Below, piece after piece: positions 9,801 through 15,800 of a stretch of 64,000 nt of DNA. The stretch comes from Lytechinus pictus (lineage: Eukaryota), in contig NC_087251.1 in the NCBI RefSeq assembly GCF_037042905.1, positions 34,660,001-34,724,000 of the forward strand, read 5' to 3'. Position 1 is the first letter of the stretch. Each line of letters begins with the position of its first letter. The translations under genes were made by a program, and so were the position numbers. The notes under the pieces were generated by a model. It saw only the letters and a program-made list of their open reading frames with translations. It had not been told where the DNA came from and made no database searches.

Positions 9801-12800
9801 TCTTTACCCCGTCTACAAAATCTTTATCAGCGCATAAACTGCTGTTAAACTTCCAGTACGATCTCCCATATGCAAAGCTTTCGACTAAATTATCAAACTC
9901 TACCTGAACTCCAGCATGGTCAGGAGTGATAGAGGGTAAAATGTCTGAACTTTTCACGTCTTTTTCTAAATTCGAGGAGATAAAAATATAATCTAATCTG
10001 CTCTGAACAAAAGGATTATTTTGTTTGAAGGTAAATTCTTTTTTGTTAGGGTGCCGCTTCCGCCACACATCAATTAGATTTAGCCTATCAAGAAAATCCA
10101 CCAATGAATCTTTATATCTATTTTTCGAAATATTACTTCCACCCATGTAATCTAAGTTTCGATTCATAGCAATATTAAAATCTCCTCCAACAATAAGAGA
10201 ATATTCTTGACTAACAACAGAAGATAAAATTTTGTCCAAATCAGACAGAAAATTGCATTGTAAGTTTTCTTTATTCCCTGTGGGGAAATATACACTACCC
10301 AATATAATCTTTTCACCTTGACACTTCCCTTTAATTATAACGTATCGTCCTTCTTTATCAATGATAATTTTTTCTTTGAGAAAATCAACCTTTGATTTAA
10401 ACATAATGATAACTCCCCTACTGTGGTTACTCCCATGACTGAAAAACATTTCCCCCTTCCAATCAGCCTTCCATCTACCTTCAGTGTCTTTTGTGCTAAA
10501 AGTTTCCTGCAGAAATATTATATCCCCCATCATCTGACACCACTGAAATATTTTATTCCTTTTGATTTGATCTCTCAGCCCTCTGACATTGACCGAAAGT
10601 AGTTTTAAATTACCCGACATCAATTAACACAAAAAGTCTAAACCTCTGACAAAAACTTTGGAATAAGAATATGAATGATAATGATATTACTGCAAATTGG
10701 TAGCTTGATTTTTTTAACATGACAAAATAACCTGTTAAACTAAAATGGGGATAAGATAAATACAGATAGACACCAGAACTGGAAAACACAACACACAACA
10801 TATCATTCCACTTCACCCCAACAAACACAGCACATACACTTCTGCAAACATACTCAAACACATGCCCATAGACTGTCCCTACCATGAAACCCAAAGAAGA
10901 AAGACTTTTCTTCATATCCTAAAAAAAAAAAAAAATGCAAATTACGAATAGGCCTATTTTGAGGCCTCTCCCATCACTTCTGTGATTTTAAAACTACAAT
11001 TAAAGAAGATTCAAAATTATTTTCACAAAATTTATCACTCCCTCCTAAAAAAAACCTAGATTACCTCACTCATCCCAGTATTTATATTAAATATAACAGT
11101 TTTTTTTCCTATCTTAAAAATTGGTTTTAACATTTCATTGATAGATATACAAACTTGAATATTTTTCAGTTAATTAAAGAAAAAAAATAATAATATTTGT
11201 GACTCTTATTCCTCTTCATATAATATCTAAAAAACTCAAAATCTTTATGCAATATCTTAATGTTTTCTTTAAAAAAAAAAAAAAAAAACTTTACTATCCT
11301 TTCTTTTTTCTTTTCTTTTGAACAGAAATAAAAATAAAATTATTATTCCCATTCATGCGAAAAAAAGATTAAAAGGAAGAGAGAAAAAAAGGGGGAAAAT
11401 GCATCCTTTGCAAGATTTTGCCTACATTTTATCTGCTTTCGAACCTCTTAAAGATGGCTGAAGACCTGCTAGGGACGAAACCTCTTTCAAAGTACAATTC
11501 GTTCCCTTGCCGTATCCACCCCTTATTGATAAACTACAATTGGGCCCCATCCTACAAAGAACCGCGACAGACCTGACTAACCACAATATGGAAGGCCAGC
11601 AACGCCAAATTCTACAGATGCACGCTTGTTCCAAAATGTCCCTATAGTTATATGTATATTCACGCAGTCATCATTGTCTTGACAAACAAGCACGCCCCTC
11701 CCTATTTATAAAAAGACACTGTAAAAAATTTTCCGCAGATCAATCGCAACTCCCTGCAAGATGGGGCCCAGCTGGATGACCACATACACAGGAAGGTGGT
11801 GACGAGGTCTCAAAGATATACGTTCGCCTTCCAGCCTCCCGGGCCAATCAGAGCCGAGAGGACGTGACACGCCATGAATTTAAGATATTCATACCAGTAT
11901 TCAGTTTATAATTGCAAAAAAACCACGCCCTGTCAGCTCCGATGGTTCCGAGAAACCAGAGACAACTCGGGTTACTAAACAAAACTCTCGGCACCAACCT
12001 TCGCGGAACAGTCACGTCATAAACAACCTCACCTAAACCAGGACTCTACCACATTGTACTTGTTCGACAAAACTGATATATTTCTACTATTATTTCGCTA
12101 ACTAGCAACTTCCCTTCTTGCATCCTAACAAATGGCATTATAAATATGCCAGCCTTTCTGAAAGTTTTTTTATTCAATAGCACCTAGAGTACAAAAACCA
12201 GCTATTGTGTGAGAAAAAAAAAAAAAAAAAAAACCATTCTTCCGAAATTTGTAAACTCAAGCACAATATCTTTGTGGATTTCTTCCTCTTCAAAAAAATA
12301 GTTCCTTAAGTCTCAAAATCTTTATGCAATCTACTTATATATTCAAACTTACTGTATTATCAATTCATTTATATATACATAAAAAAACAAGGAAATTTCC
12401 TGATCCCTCTTTCACGTGAAAAGAGGGAAGGAGCATAAGTTAATACACGATATAAATATCATTTCTGTCTGTTGGCGAACCTCGCCCTGCTCATGTGGAT
12501 GGCCGAAGACCAGCTAGTGACGAGCCCTATTAAATATACATATTATTTATTATAAAAAAAAAAAAAAAAGAAAGATCGTTCCATATATAGCCGTCAGCCC
12601 ATTCACCAAACCCCGTGCTGACTAGCCTATAATCCAGGCGGAGGCCGCAGCAACCGTCCCCGCCGCTACGCCGAACGCAAGCGACGCGACCGACCCAGCT
12701 AAGGCCACGCACTGTGCCTGCGTAGCCAGCCACAATGCGTAACCCCGCCAGATCAGACGCATCGCCCGCGACCAGCACAGCAACAAAGACACAAACGCAG

Positions 12801-15800
12801 CCCCCGCCCAGATCACAGACGACCAGCTAAATCCATCCGCTGACCAACAAGAAGCTGGTGACAGGTCTCAAAAAGATATACTCTCGCCTTCCGGCCTCCC
12901 GGGCCAATCAGAGCCAGGCAGACGCACCGCGTCATTGATTGATGAAATAACCGGGTATACATTATCCAAATCATTCAGTTGACTAAAGTGCGAATGATGC
13001 CCAGTCAGCCCCGATTGTCCCGAGAAACCAGAGACGAGGTCAATAAACATGAACTCTCGCCACCAGCCTCCGCGGACCAATCATAACTGAGAAAAAAAAT
13101 GCACGTCATAATTACCTCGCCTAAACCAGGGTACTACAACATTTCAAGTATTCGACAGAATTGAATAATAGCTGTTTTCCTTTTGAATTGAATAATAGCT
13201 GTTTTATCTTAACCATTGGCATTTTTTTTTATTCTATGCCATTCTTCCATAATGTCTAAAATCAAGCATACCTTTATAATTATGGCTTTATTCCTCGTCA
13301 TGTACATGTAAATCCTAAGATCTCAAAATCTTTATGCAATCTATCGGTACCTACATTAAAGATACTTAACTGTCAATTTATAAAAAGGAGTAAATTTCCT
13401 TATATCCCTTTTGGGAAGAACATCAGTTACAAAAGTTAATTATAATTTTTGCCGTTTGCGAACCTCATCATGCTCATAAAGATAACTAGAGACCAGCTAG
13501 TGACGAGCCCGGTGTAAAAAGTACAGCTCGTTCCCTAGCCGTCGGACCAAACATCCACCCCAACCAGCTATATCTGACTCTCGCCTTCCAGCCTTCCCGG
13601 GCCAATCAGAGAGAGAAAGCGTACCGCGTCATTGATGAGAAAAGAAATTGATAATTACCCATTCATTATCCAAATCATTCAGTTGACCACTCAAATACCA
13701 CGCCCAGTCAGCTCCGATTGTCCCGAGAAACCCAGAGACGAGGTCAATTAAAAATCATGAACTCTCGCCACTAGCCTCCGCGGACCAATGTAAGTTGATG
13801 AAAAACAGTCACGTCATAGCTAGTGGGTAGCACATTACCTCGCCTGAACCAGGGTTCTACATTTTACGAATTCGACTTAATTGTTTCATTCTCCTATTTT
13901 TTAATTACTCAACACCTCACACGTTCCAGCGTCTACATCAAATGTATTTGGCAAAGCCATTTTCTTTTCTTATCTTAACGAACTGTATAGCATGATTCAG
14001 TTACGTAATACAATCAGGGTAACCATTCTGAACATTACAGTGATTTATGCCTGCATTGTTATCTATCTTTACTAATTCATTGAAATGCATTCTTTCTCTT
14101 AAACATTCCATATACAAATAAGCTTTTAAGCATCATTACCTTCAATCAATCATGAAAAGAAATGGTCCTTTTACCCTTACAAAAGCTTTGAATTCCCAAA
14201 CATCTCAATCTTCCTTCGTATTGTAGAAACCAAAAAGAACATAATGAAATATTCCCCAATATCATGAAGCTATTATAATTTCCACTACAATTTGAACAGC
14301 AGTTTTATGAAGAATCAACTTTTCCCCAAACCAGCTTAAATATGCACCCCATTGGGATGTATTCCATTGAGCTTTTTTTTACAAAATGACCACACACACA
14401 AAAAAAAAATATCTTCAGAACTGATCATAACTGACTCCAGAAAAAAGATTCACAGCAACAAGTATCTCTTATAAACTTAAATCATGGAGCTATAGCTCTA
14501 TGCTTAAATCTAGCTTATTTTTGTTTCCCTTATGAATAAAAAAAGGAGAAAAGCATAAGCCTCATGTTGTTACTATGAAATCTTGTTTCCATTCATCAAG
14601 TCAAGGTGTGTTATGACTCGGTACTCTAATCAATTTCTTGCAATATCATAATCAATTTTTCGTATTTCTTGCATCTTTGAAGATATTGATCTTTTCCAGT
14701 TGTAAAGTTTTTCTTTTATCAAAATAAATAGCAAATAGAAAAGAAAGGAAATATACCTCATCTACTCCTGTTCATTCAGTTATGTTATGATTTATCATTC
14801 CTCATTCAGCAGTTGCTTGCCAAGTCTCGTTCTTGTGATGAGTTGACAGTAAAATCTGCAGTTCTCGAGTGTTCAGTTACACTCCCTTTTTTGAGCTTGA
14901 TTGTAGAGTTGGTACCTCGCAGGCTCGTAAATGGTAAAAGATACATATCCTCCACTCGGTAAACATTAATCAGTTGAGAGAGAAAATCATTCACCTCCAT
15001 AATAATAAAGCACACTGAATCGTTATTTCACTTGCATAATCGACGAAATGAACAACCCGACCCGACCAGAGGGAACGAGTTTCACAAAATAAATACATGT
15101 CACCTCCATGATCGCTGGTAACTTGTGACAAATTTCAGATACTTTCTCCAAAGCAAATTTCCTTCAATCTATGCATTAGAAAAAAAAAACAAGATGACAG
15201 ATGAAATCACAATACCATCAAATTATGATCTGCAGCTACATTTGCACCTTCCATCATCTCCCCATCAGTGGCAGCCGCTGCAGCCCCCTCGTTGAAATCT
15301 GTTGTCGGCTTTGCTATCCCTGTGGTCATGTTGGTGGTCGATGCAGCTCCCGCCATCGTTGTCGGAATCCTCATGTTAGGCAAATTCTTCCTCACTCTTT
15401 CGTCTACATCTTTCCCTCGTTGGTTTTCGAAGTCTCGCACAAAAGCTTCCTGTTGATTTCGAGGCATATGTACGTTGTCGATAAATAGCTTGACTGGATC
15501 TGTTCTTGAAAAGTATGCCAATTTCCCCATTCTTCTGGCGACTTTCAACGCCACAATTTGGGGGTGTCTAGCCTCCCTAATCCTCTTCGGTAGATCTTCT
15601 GCAATATATATGTTGGTCCCTTTCAAATTTTTGGCATGCCTTTGTACCAAAACTCTGTCGGAGTATCTTAGGAAGCGAGCCTTAATGGCTCTTGGCCTCC
15701 CTCCGGCTGGCTTTCCTGAAAGTCGATGTAACCGTTGATATTCGAAGTTGTCTGCCAGTGCAGGTGGGATTTTAAGAAAATTCACGTGGAGGTCCCGAAG

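Follow-up and report, generated by a model that had tools for sequence, protein, structure and literature searches.

Organization of the element

The window, the 64,000-nucleotide stretch of Lytechinus pictus DNA analysed here, contains on its minus strand a full-length L1-type element of 10,069 nt (6203..16271), whose ends agree with those of four other full copies. It consists of a very short 5′ UTR of 72 nt (16200..16271, from the common 5′ end to the first ORF1 ATG), ORF1 (15207..16199, 330 aa), a non-coding inter-ORF spacer of 4,586 nt (10621..15206), ORF2 (6874..10620, 1,248 aa from its ATG) and a 3′ UTR (6206..6873) in which a GT/G-rich stretch and an AATAAA signal are followed by a short A-rich tail (6206-6221); all of these features, and those below, are on the minus strand. 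Both reading frames are unbroken, that of ORF1 being open over 15207..16265 with its first ATG at 16199 and that of ORF2 over 6874..10623 (1249 aa) with its ATG at 10620.

ORF2 encodes an APE endonuclease, a reverse transcriptase and a zf-RVT domain (Pfam: Exo_endo_phos, 2.3e-13; RVT_1, 1.5e-35; zf-RVT, 6.6e-10). Its best PDB match is human L1 ORF2p (8uw3, E=3.8e-114, residues 4-877), while R2 is matched at only 1e-24. ORF1 belongs to the L1 ORF1p type, with a coiled coil, an RRM and the start of a CTD. The Pfam search placed ORF1 in no family at its cut-off, and the single sequence did not match L1 ORF1p structures, unlike a profile of 17 homologues, which matched human L1 ORF1p (2ykp/2yko, E=1.3e-10) over the coiled coil and RRM as well as 2ldy (6e-5) and 2w7a (2e-4). 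The element thus combines the marks of the L1 superfamily: an ORF2 with APE, RT and a C-terminal Cys-rich region, closest to L1 ORF2p; an ORF1p with coiled coil, RRM and CTD; and an A-rich 3′ end, variable 5′ truncation and a target-site duplication (TSD). It departs from them in one respect, having 4,586 nt between its ORFs where described vertebrate families have overlapping ORFs or a short IGR (0 to ~1 kb).

The four other full-length copies are ~96-99% identical to the window element and, by blastn, extend from 6203, 6206 or 6208 to 16271 (the alignment of one, C8, reaches 16289); alignment is continuous from ~6203 to 16271 in four of the five copies that were fetched. Their flanks are mutually unrelated, except that C17 and C37 have common flanks, and their 3′ ends agree. 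Identity of the window element to C17, C19 and C37 is 98-100% in all regions, and the 5′ UTR is 98.6-100% identical across four young copies. Five copies carry A-tails of 10-16 nt, two to three have TSDs of 7-8 nt in low-complexity targets, and 5′ truncation is variable, with six points in ORF2 and three in the spacer. The interval 6203-16271 holds a recently copied, intact L1-type LINE, of a family whose members are reverse-transcribed as a single 10-kb RNA with the 4.6-kb non-coding inter-ORF region included. An initial annotation of the same DNA had described a young copy with two unbroken ORFs and an A-tail, which these identities bear out; the TSD that it put forward is present as an 8-nt ATTATTAT on both sides (16275-16282 and 6199-6206), but, because it lies in the (ATT)n tail of a flanking repeat, it is weak evidence when taken alone.

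The inter-ORF spacer and its three-unit array

The sense strand of the spacer is T-rich (34.5% T), its longest ATG-initiated ORF is 98 aa, and it contains 106 AUGs, compared with ~102 expected from composition. Because these AUGs are so many and so close to the compositional expectation, scanning or reinitiation by ribosomes from ORF1 is implausible. The initial annotation had measured the same 4586 nt between the ORF1 stop at 15207 and the ORF2 ATG at 10620, and had considered this distance hard to reconcile with termination-reinitiation of the human L1 type, a view with which the AUG count agrees.

The spacer is present base for base in the four other full-length copies, and the spacer with all three units of the array described below occurs in every full-length copy found. 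An array probe matched four other loci end to end at 94-98% and one more (C30) at 89%. The junction of spacer and ORF2 is spanned at 10 loci, six others being truncated inside ORF2, and three copies are truncated within the spacer itself (C18, which ends at window position 11934, C5 and C3:6485). The 5′ part of the spacer (13896..15206) has no internal repeat and matches only copies of the family and, weakly, two old relatives. A one-off nested insertion, a chimeric assembly or a chance adjacency of two unrelated elements is refuted: the 10-kb unit recurs with the same ends at four other loci with different flanks, the array has neither termini nor a TSD of its own and no copies beyond L1, and each sister family has a gap of constant length.

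Boundaries drawn from a MAFFT alignment (A2) divide the array into unit C, the 5′-most (13171..13895, ~725 nt), which lacks a ~270-nt variable insert found in the other two; unit B (12081..13170, ~1,090 nt); and unit A, the 3′-most (11195..12080, ~885 nt). The 19-mer anchors at 11235, 12312 and 13322, with spacings of 1077 and 1010, are as initially annotated and lie within copies of the repeat family D7 at 11226, 12303 and 13313; the number of units, three, likewise holds, while their length, initially given as ~1 kb, is ~725, ~1,090 and ~885 nt when measured from unit starts. Common to all units are a GC-rich core of ~320 nt (pairwise identity 73-82%), a further block of ~70 nt and the anchor, and the stretches between these align poorly. 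Homopolymer expansions and nested repeats have arisen inside the units; a GC-rich nested stretch in unit B (~12623-12813) matches many genomic loci on both strands at 69-75%, and another in unit A (~11541-11685) matches many other loci at 73-80%. We conclude that a GC-rich module, triplicated in tandem in this family only, makes up the three units and later acquired nested repeats. All 20 candidates for the unit core that were checked are L1 copies, either of the family A lineage, to which the window element belongs, or of one old relative, and none lies away from L1 flanks.

The near identity of short blocks amid barely alignable linkers, which the initial annotation took as a sign of selection, is non-random. 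Invariant runs of 20, 19 and 16 nt cross the units. When the columns were shuffled 5000 times, the longest run averaged 9.3 (P(longest run >= 20) = 0.0006), and the third-longest run was reached in 0 of 5000. Four invariant words of the units, found only in the A lineage, presumably resemble CRE/bZIP and inverted CCAAT sites. The step from conservation to selection fares less well, since relative to the ~90% identical C30 subfamily the unit cores differ by 4.4%, about the synonymous rate (4.3-5.5% at third codon positions of the ORFs, compared with 1.7-1.8% at positions 1+2). Ongoing constraint on the array therefore appears weak at best, and its role as a cargo, also suggested initially, is unsupported.

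Long spacers throughout the clade

From 106 of the 121 hits to ORF1 and 129 of the 150 to the N-terminal part of ORF2, forty-one ORF1/ORF2 pairs were assembled. Where ORF1 identity reaches 34% or more (35 pairs), the gap measures 3.36-5.5 kb in 30 pairs, 2.3 kb in one and 9-11.4 kb in four; in all six pairs at 27-33% ORF1 identity it is 286-825 nt. ORF2 frames of 1248-1284 aa occur at many of the long-spacer loci, ORF2 is intact in several families, and the spacer of family C is full-length at four loci (96-100%). The long spacer is thus a trait of this entire clade of L1 families in the Lytechinus pictus genome. This is the main new result of the study. Such a layout does not accord with the usual L1 route to the second protein.

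The spacers of families A, B and C have in common only homopolymer runs and one 111-nt block, the latter confined to the two closest families. That of family B is without internal repeats, and that of family C has one 366-bp tandem duplication. The clade spacers (3.4-5.5 kb) turn over fast. The array is not what makes a long spacer workable, because sister families have equally long, unrelated spacers without it, and it may be neutral, given that the divergence of its cores is close to the synonymous level and that families B and C manage without one.

A conserved block next to ORF2

The 111-nt block (10770..10880), which is GU-rich, lies ~150 nt upstream of the ORF2 ATG. It is 91% identical between families A and B, compared with 76% for ORF2, and the sequence on either side is unalignable. 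The spacing between block and ATG is nevertheless preserved, with 149 nt of unalignable sequence separating them in A and about 148 nt in B. Relative to the C30 subfamily it is 98.2% identical, a difference of 1.8% against 4.3-5.5% at third codon positions. All 22 candidates for the block are L1 copies (10 of the A lineage, 12 of family B). By a hand count, 10 of the 10 differences between A and B are non-synonymous in the shared frame, so the block is not coding. The 101-codon upstream ORF at 10610..10915, whose end lies 5 nt beyond the ORF2 ATG, has no separate counterpart in family B; there the frame runs into ORF2. The spacer's most constrained part is this block, which lies outside the array and adjoins ORF2.

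These rates bear on the simplest account of the spacer, neutral accretion, in which spacer and array are functionless, the conserved words result from gene conversion between units or from alignment anchoring, and ORF2p is supplied in trans, e.g. from 5′-truncated copies of the C18 type with an intact ORF2. The near-synonymous divergence of the unit cores, the nested repeats and homopolymer expansions within units and the lack of homology between the spacers of different families are all as this account predicts, and C18 does have an open 1249-aa ORF2 without ORF1. However, the 111-nt block is clearly constrained, and chance is unlikely to leave invariant runs of 16-20 nt in units that are no more than 73-82% alike. 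In addition, deletion bias should have yielded short spacers if length were free, but only one pair in the clade falls below 3.3 kb (2.3 kb), and none approaches the 0.3-0.8 kb of the distant lineages. We consider neutral accretion alone rather unlikely.

A cap-independent route on the full-length RNA, whether internal ribosome entry, shunting or another, would assign the GU-rich block the recruitment of ribosomes or a host factor and would leave the rest of the spacer, including the array, as tolerated filler. Such a route would suit a spacer that mostly diverges at near-neutral rates but keeps one conserved island whose distance from the ORF2 ATG is fixed, and IRES-like elements adjoining ORF2 have been predicted in silico in the long IGRs of fish, frog and lizard L1, according to PMC5381506. 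In contrast, the 314 nt that precede ORF2 show no better folding than shuffled sequence (z = +0.85; 82 of 100 shuffles fold as well), covariation in the block yields a single credible compensatory pair, and an Rfam search at E<=5 returned no family match except three chance-level snoRNA hits. Moreover, the ORF2 RNA described below is not the full-length RNA that this route requires. We regard cap-independent translation as having perhaps one chance in a handful. The same folding, covariation and Rfam results leave two earlier proposals for the array, a structured-RNA cassette and an IRES-like array, unsupported, so that an internal promoter is the best of the three options raised initially.

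An RNA boundary upstream of ORF2

Raw reads of three stranded, ribo-depleted RNA-seq runs were sampled at about 6% of each run. In two of them (X19 and X20), L1-sense depth is 0.8-5.1x over bins 9510-10953, compared with 0-0.8x antisense; it is at most 0.25x over bins 10954-11675, at most 0.7x over bins 12037-15285 and zero over the ORF1 bins 15286-16007. The third (X21) has no coverage over the 5′ half of ORF2. The fall from 1.7-1.8x to at most 0.25x occurs at 10917..10944, ~300 nt upstream of the ORF2 ATG, an edge blurred by masking of a T15 run; none of the known copies is truncated at ~10950. Depth over ORF2 is 1-5x, from ~50 reads in the two runs, and because most reads are only 95-99% alike, they come from several copies. 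Almost no reads start in or cover the units. With neither spacer nor ORF1 covered by reads, the ORF2-containing RNA observed is not full-length; full-length or ORF1 RNA was not seen in these sparse reads, and a two-transcript model is therefore only half observed. The initial annotation had suggested mapping RNA-seq for internal starts, splicing or processing. The reads give sense coverage of ORF2 from ~300 nt upstream of its ATG, but no position in them collects many molecule starts, and no transcription start was mapped.

The edge coincides with an octamer-like word, ATTTGCAT, followed by the T15 run and AG (10917..10944); the spacer has no other strong acceptor-like polypyrimidine-YAG site. 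This coincidence raises the possibility of retrovirus-like splicing, in which full-length RNA would serve as template and ORF1 mRNA, and a donor situated either close to the 5′ end or past ORF1 would be joined to an acceptor ~300 nt upstream of ORF2, producing an ORF2 mRNA or a bicistronic mRNA with a short spacer. Acceptor-like sites by a strict definition (>=14 of 16 pyrimidines plus YAG) number one in the spacer of A, one in that of B and two in that of C, and those of A and B and one of C's fall in the last ~140-450 nt before ORF2. Nevertheless, no donor matching MAG|GTRAGT at >=8 of 9 positions occurs between the 5′ end and ORF2 in A or C, and no spliced retrocopy was present among the 22 loci with the 111-nt block. 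No joint into the 10917 site was reported, at a depth too low for the 3-read threshold, and the zero coverage of ORF1 means that the reads do not show a spliced ORF1-ORF2 bicistron. Splicing as the main route is, in our judgment, improbable.

A proposed route to ORF2

Our preferred reading, to which we give somewhat less than even weight, is that ORF2 does not depend on ribosomes arriving from ORF1 but has its own expression, from a control region proximal to ORF2. This region would comprise the polypyrimidine/octamer stretch at ~10917-10944 and the conserved block at 10770-10880, and the most likely route would be internal transcription initiation, with the ORF2 mRNA beginning ~300 nt before the ATG, and full-length RNA would serve as ORF1 mRNA and retrotransposition template. 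Once expression of ORF2 no longer depended on ORF1, duplication and insertion would be free to enlarge the stretch from the ORF1 stop to the control region. The array of family A would then probably act as upstream promoter/enhancer "monomers", which is the weakest step of the scheme. A point against independent initiation is that a cis-preferring ORF2p that copied its own subgenomic mRNA would be expected to leave copies starting at ~10950, and no known copy of this ~20-copy family is truncated or starts there.

More tentatively, the echinoid-type L1 clade as a whole may have dropped the bicistronic mRNA, with ORF1 and ORF2 becoming separate expression units within one retrotransposed RNA. 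ORF2 would be expressed from an internally initiated (or spliced) subgenomic mRNA under a small conserved element, and the spacer would be a fast-evolving landing pad for promoters and enhancers, represented in family A by the three monomer-like units. If so, ORF2p would need to work on the full-length RNA in trans, contrary to the rule of cis preference that L1 is thought to obey.

Comparison with other L1-type elements

In rodent L1, monomers are tandem ~200-bp promoter units that are placed upstream of ORF1, where they drive synthesis of the full-length RNA. The units described here resemble them as tandem, GC-richer, non-coding direct repeats inside an L1 that are family-specific, are replaced over evolution and carry short words resembling factor sites; they differ in lying between the ORFs (11195-13895) rather than upstream of ORF1, where the 5′ UTR has only 72 nt, in their length (0.7-1.1 kb) and number (only three), and in that their promoter role is putative. 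Human L1 reportedly produces monocistronic or spliced ORF2 RNAs as by-products of splicing or truncation of its 6-kb bicistronic element. These likewise contain ORF2 without ORF1, but the ORF2-only RNA of the present element would be a designed expression route.

[quoted passage not shown] In that source vertebrate IGRs measure 0-1,032 bp, are AT/T-rich with short repeats and lack sequence conservation; in fish and frog a long IGR is coupled to a very short 5′ UTR (0.14-0.23 kb); and the 5′ UTRs of mouse and rat L1 are monomer arrays. The present clade is similar to these long-IGR elements in its two ORFs, its length-variable, T-rich, non-conserved IGR and its short 5′ UTR. It is distinguished from the vertebrate elements in that source by spacers 3-5 times the 1,032-bp maximum, by the ~1-kb tandem units and nested repeats of family A, and by the lack of support here for an IRES-like structure.

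The insertion site of the window element is the (ATT)n tail of an abundant SINE-like repeat that flanks it (16272..16460; 87-90% identity in 40 scored of 534 candidates). The Tx1 group comprises L1-like, target-specific LINEs with APE, RT and a C-terminal zinc knuckle, and with ORF1 upstream. The present element has the same domain order, and the insertions seen are in microsatellite-like tails of other repeats; the 3′ flanks of its copies are unrelated, so that no one specific target stands out, and the element is at most a candidate member of the Tx1 group. In every independent full copy the 5′ flank has the word GGCGCT within 55 nt, and the insertions sit in AT-rich or microsatellite-like tails, but the 3′ flanks have nothing in common. 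Two further copies of the SINE-like repeat end in TATTATTATTA before diverging. The L1 family itself is small, with only ~20 copies.

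The long spacer is an integral part of a 10-kb element

The minus strand of the window contains two intact ORFs of an L1-type retrotransposon located at 6203-16271 (family A). ORF2 (6874..10623, ATG at 10620; 1248 aa from the ATG) possesses Exo_endo_phos, RVT_1 and zf-RVT domains (Pfam), and among proteins of solved structure it is closest to human L1 ORF2p (E=3.8e-114, residues 4-877). For ORF1 (15207..16199 from the first ATG, 330 aa), nothing exceeded the Pfam cut-off and a single-sequence PDB search was without match; a profile of ORF1 and 16 database homologues, the sole named one of which is from a sea urchin, matched human L1 ORF1p (2ykp/2yko, E=1.3e-10; coiled coil and RRM). 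The distance of 4,586 nt that the initial annotation had given between the ORFs was borne out, with the spacer occupying 10621-15206. In the sense orientation it consists of 1.3 kb of unique, non-repeated sequence, three tandem units, C (13171-13895), B (12081-13170) and A (11195-12080), and a final stretch of 0.57 kb between unit A and ORF2.

In the 812-Mb eukaryotic assembly containing the window, an array probe (11200-13900) matched end to end at four other loci with 94-98% identity (contigs C17, C37, C19 and C8), and at a fifth, C30, with 89%. Among these five fetched copies, the blastn match was unbroken from 6203, 6206 or 6208 to 16271 in four; the C8 copy has a ~370-nt insertion and an alignment that extends to 16289, and the C30 copy is older and rearranged. 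When aligned with MAFFT, the window copy was 98-100% identical to the C17, C19 and C37 copies in every region, except for the 3′ UTR and the region just upstream of a conserved 111-nt block near ORF2 (96.0-99.7%), where the C37 copy has a 46-nt gap. The copies have a common 5′ start, TACGATG, and end in an A-run of 10-16 nt after AATAAA. Because both flanks are common to the C17 and C37 copies, these represent one insertion that was later duplicated, and the young independent full-length insertions therefore number four; C30, C3:7476 and C14:8396 are older insertions. The window and C17 copies retain two open ORFs; in the C19, C37 and C8 copies, one ORF contains a stop or is shortened.

Junction probes showed that the spacer/ORF2 boundary is spanned at 10 loci and that six copies are 5′-truncated within ORF2. 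Three others are truncated within the spacer (C18, at window position 11934; C5; and C3:6485), as would be expected of a spacer that is reverse-transcribed along with the rest of the element. Short-spacer siblings and a nested insertion with its own ends, either of which would have undermined the initial annotation, are excluded, as is occurrence of the array elsewhere: all 20 genome-wide candidates for the unit core (13440-13880) lie either in family A copies or in a single old, degenerate relative on C1. An origin of the units as captured host sequence or as an independent repeat was likewise rejected, since the core has no copies outside of this L1 lineage. The 4.6-kb spacer is thus integral to an L1 unit of 10 kb. 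The truncated C18 copy (G000:C18:22171669-22175409), which begins inside unit A, retains a fully open ORF2 of 1249 aa and lacks ORF1. The C1 relative (G000:C1:16036000-16052000; 72-90% identity, in pieces) apparently has a single unit directly before an ORF2 fragment, so that the array either began as one unit or was later reduced by deletion.

Long spacers extend across the clade

The principal result beyond the initial annotation is that the long spacer is clade-wide. Searches by tblastn returned 121 scored hits for ORF1 and 150 for the first 240 aa of ORF2, and pairing of hits that lay no more than 15 kb apart on one contig and strand, with 15 and 21 fragmentary or 5′-truncated rows left out, yielded 41 ORF1/ORF2 pairs in total. 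All 35 pairs with an ORF1 identity of at least 34% (ORF2 N-terminus, 42-100%) had long gaps: 30 of 3.36-5.5 kb, one of 2.3 kb and four of 9-11.4 kb, the last of which we assume to be nested insertions. The six pairs from distant L1 lineages (ORF1, 27-33%; ORF2 N-terminus, 37-40%) all had the canonical short spacer, with gaps of 286-825 nt as counted from the end of a partial ORF1 match. Gap length is constant within families, e.g. four gaps of 3.36-3.44 kb in family B (and 4.54 kb at one B locus, on C17), three of 4.69-4.76 kb in family C and about five of 4.39-4.66 kb in another family, and ORF2 frames of 1248-1284 aa are found at many long-spacer loci.

Reading of sister loci in full (one of family C, three of family B) revealed that the A, B and C spacers have nothing in common except homopolymer runs and one block; all are AT-rich, with a T-rich or A+T-rich sense strand. 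The family B spacer is free of internal repeats, and that of family C, which repeats in full at four loci (96-100%), has a single 366-bp tandem duplication. Long spacers are clade-wide and unrelated in sequence. An ORF2-only ancestor that later acquired its 5′ portion was discarded, as the sister families also carry ORF1 3.4-4.8 kb upstream.

The tandem array is specific to family A

Each unit has a GC-rich core of ~320 nt (pairwise identity 73-82%), itself an internal duplication of the module TGACG(Y)G ... GATTGG(Y)CCG(S)GGAGGCTGG..GCGAGAGT, along with a second block of ~70 nt and a 19-nt anchor; the ~270-350 nt between the core and the second block in units A and B are absent from unit C. 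Two segments of this extra sequence, 11541-11685 (unit A) and 12623-12813 (unit B), have matches at many other genomic loci and are therefore nested repeats; they are the sole unit-specific inserts belonging to other repeats. The GC-rich unit B insert is matched at ~15 other loci (69-75%) on both strands at the same places, and is therefore a short repeat of the palindromic or inverted-repeat type nested in the array.

Conservation among the units is clustered: the invariant runs measure 20, 19, 16 and 11 nt, and column shuffles gave a longest run of 9.3 on average (P=0.0006). The four invariant words are restricted to the A lineage and may represent CRE/bZIP-like and inverted-CCAAT-like sites, judged by resemblance to consensus sequences. 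Relative to the ~90% subfamily (C30), the unit cores have diverged by 3.1-6.0% (36/821 = 4.4%) and the rest of the units by 6.1-8.5%, in comparison to 1.7-1.8% at ORF codon positions 1+2, 4.3-5.5% at position 3 and 1.8% in the 111-nt block. Because the cores resemble codon position 3, they exhibit no detectable constraint beyond that of synonymous sites. The array is thus a family-specific triplicated module in which the invariant words are non-random and the overall rate is near-neutral, and it is best seen as a family-specific add-on, which may be a tolerated duplication or, on the analogy of rodent L1, a set of promoter or enhancer monomers. A CpG-island test of the units was not discriminating: observed/expected CpG is ~1 in ORF1 and in the unit cores alike, with lower values in the linkers. 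Neither Rfam nor ARAGORN supported small RNA genes in the units: Rfam gave 0 matches in the 64 kb at gathering cut-offs and three chance-level snoRNA matches at E<=5, and ARAGORN found 0 tRNAs. A reading of the second conserved block as a tRNA-like Pol III promoter was dropped.

A constrained element adjoins ORF2

The block shared by families A and B (10770-10880) is 91% identical between them, versus 76% for their ORF2s, and the ~150 nt separating it from the ORF2 ATG cannot be aligned. All 22 of 22 candidates for the block fall in A/B L1 copies. It is not coding, because all ten A/B differences change an amino acid in the shared frame. This 111-nt element adjoining ORF2 is constrained. This constraint speaks against, and the near-neutral rate of the units for, the idea that the spacer is purely neutral filler and ORF2p is supplied in trans, which we regard as unlikely.

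The spacer contains 106 AUGs versus 102 expected from its composition, and upstream AUGs have therefore not been purged, as scanning or reinitiation would need; its sense ORFs do not exceed 98 aa. Cap-independent translation of ORF2 on the full-length RNA appears rather unlikely: an RNA-structure signal was absent from the 314 nt upstream of ORF2 (z = +0.85), and the block offers one credible compensatory pair. An upstream ORF of 101 codons (10610-10915) starts 6 nt past the T15-AG described below and stops 5 nt past the ORF2 ATG, thereby overlapping ORF2 in the manner of termination-reinitiation systems. This upstream ORF was rejected as coding, as family B does not keep it as a separate ORF.

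Just upstream of the block in family A, on the minus strand at 10917-10944, lies ATTTGCAT followed by T15 and AG. A strict scan of the spacers for polypyrimidine-YAG sites found one in A, one in B and two in C, with the A site, the B site and one of the C sites located ~140-450 nt before ORF2. Splicing to such an acceptor-like site would be one means of producing an ORF2 message, and seems quite unlikely; neither A nor C contains a strong splice donor.

RNA coverage of ORF2 has its upstream edge near the block

Three stranded ribo-depleted raw-read runs with the same species label (X19, X20 and X21) were compared with the window, covering about 6% of each. In X19 and X20, bins 9510-10953 had a depth of 0.8-5.1x in one orientation, that of L1-sense RNA in most stranded libraries, versus 0-0.8x in the other; depth was <=0.25x in bins 10954-11675, <=0.7x in bins 12037-15285 and 0 in the ORF1 bins 15286-16007. 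In X21, 8788-10953 was uncovered. No joints or start clusters passed thresholds in the ~6% sampled of these runs. ORF2-sense RNA does not extend into the spacer, and because no known copy ends at ~10950, the coverage edge (roughly 50 reads) suggests either a transcript start or an acceptor at this position. We tentatively favor a model, possible though short of probable, in which ORF2 is expressed independently of ORF1 under the control of the final ~300 nt of the spacer, with internal transcription initiation as the most likely route.

RNA peaks at 11738-11769 and 16292-16331 are words of ~30-40 nt that other abundant RNAs also contain; loose ends occur on either side, and many reads continue into unrelated sequence. 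These peaks derive from abundant RNAs or repeats elsewhere and not from the L1 locus. In another run, X1, which we guess to be RNA, depth reached ~6800 at 16290-16318. This run gave contigs of the truncated C18 copy plus its own flank at a depth of 60-100 and a depth of 0 over the rest of the spacer, and is uninformative on full-length elements.

Relation to known L1 elements

It has long been an open question how a bicistronic L1 RNA yields ORF2p. This clade makes it directly testable, in a host with accessible embryos, by providing a natural extreme in which 3.4-5.5 kb and about a hundred AUGs intervene between the ORFs, several long-spacer families are intact and apparently young, and the sole conserved element is 111 nt. 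Should ORF2 prove to have an RNA to itself, both cis-preference and the idea that a single template couples ORF1p to ORF2p would have to be reconsidered for this lineage. For annotation, pipelines that expect L1s of 6-8 kb will report each such element as two items, an orphan ORF1 and an ORF2-only LINE.

According to PMC5381506, vertebrate L1 intergenic regions range from 0 to 1,032 bp and are AT/T-rich and non-conserved, IRES predictions for them are in silico only, and long intergenic regions in non-mammalian L1s have been noted and never explained. The long-spacer clade fits the same pattern, but lies 3-5 times past that upper limit and adds kilobase tandem units. No description of multi-kb L1 inter-ORF regions was found in the full-text literature searched or in PMC5203782 and PMC3708506; Repbase and the subscription literature, where an earlier description is possible, were outside our scope.

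Insertion sites and neighboring sequence

An abundant SINE-like repeat (16272-16460) received the L1 in its (ATT)n tail; a first look gave 534 candidates for this repeat, with 87-90% identity. All independent full-length L1 copies have a GGCGCT-containing word (TAGATGGCGCT or similar) <=55 nt upstream of the 5′ junction, and their TSDs are AT-rich and microsatellite-like, which suggests a preference of this L1 for the tails of a retroposon class with a common 3′ domain. A ~1-kb trinucleotide repeat tract at 4594-5699 (GC skew 0.95) reads as poly-Leu/poly-Tyr/poly-Thr on the minus strand and as poly-Val on the plus strand. On the minus strand, an A26 run (16638-16663) preceded by C-rich sequence, upstream to ~17000, resembles the tail of a further retroposed element adjoining the SINE-like flank on its upstream side.
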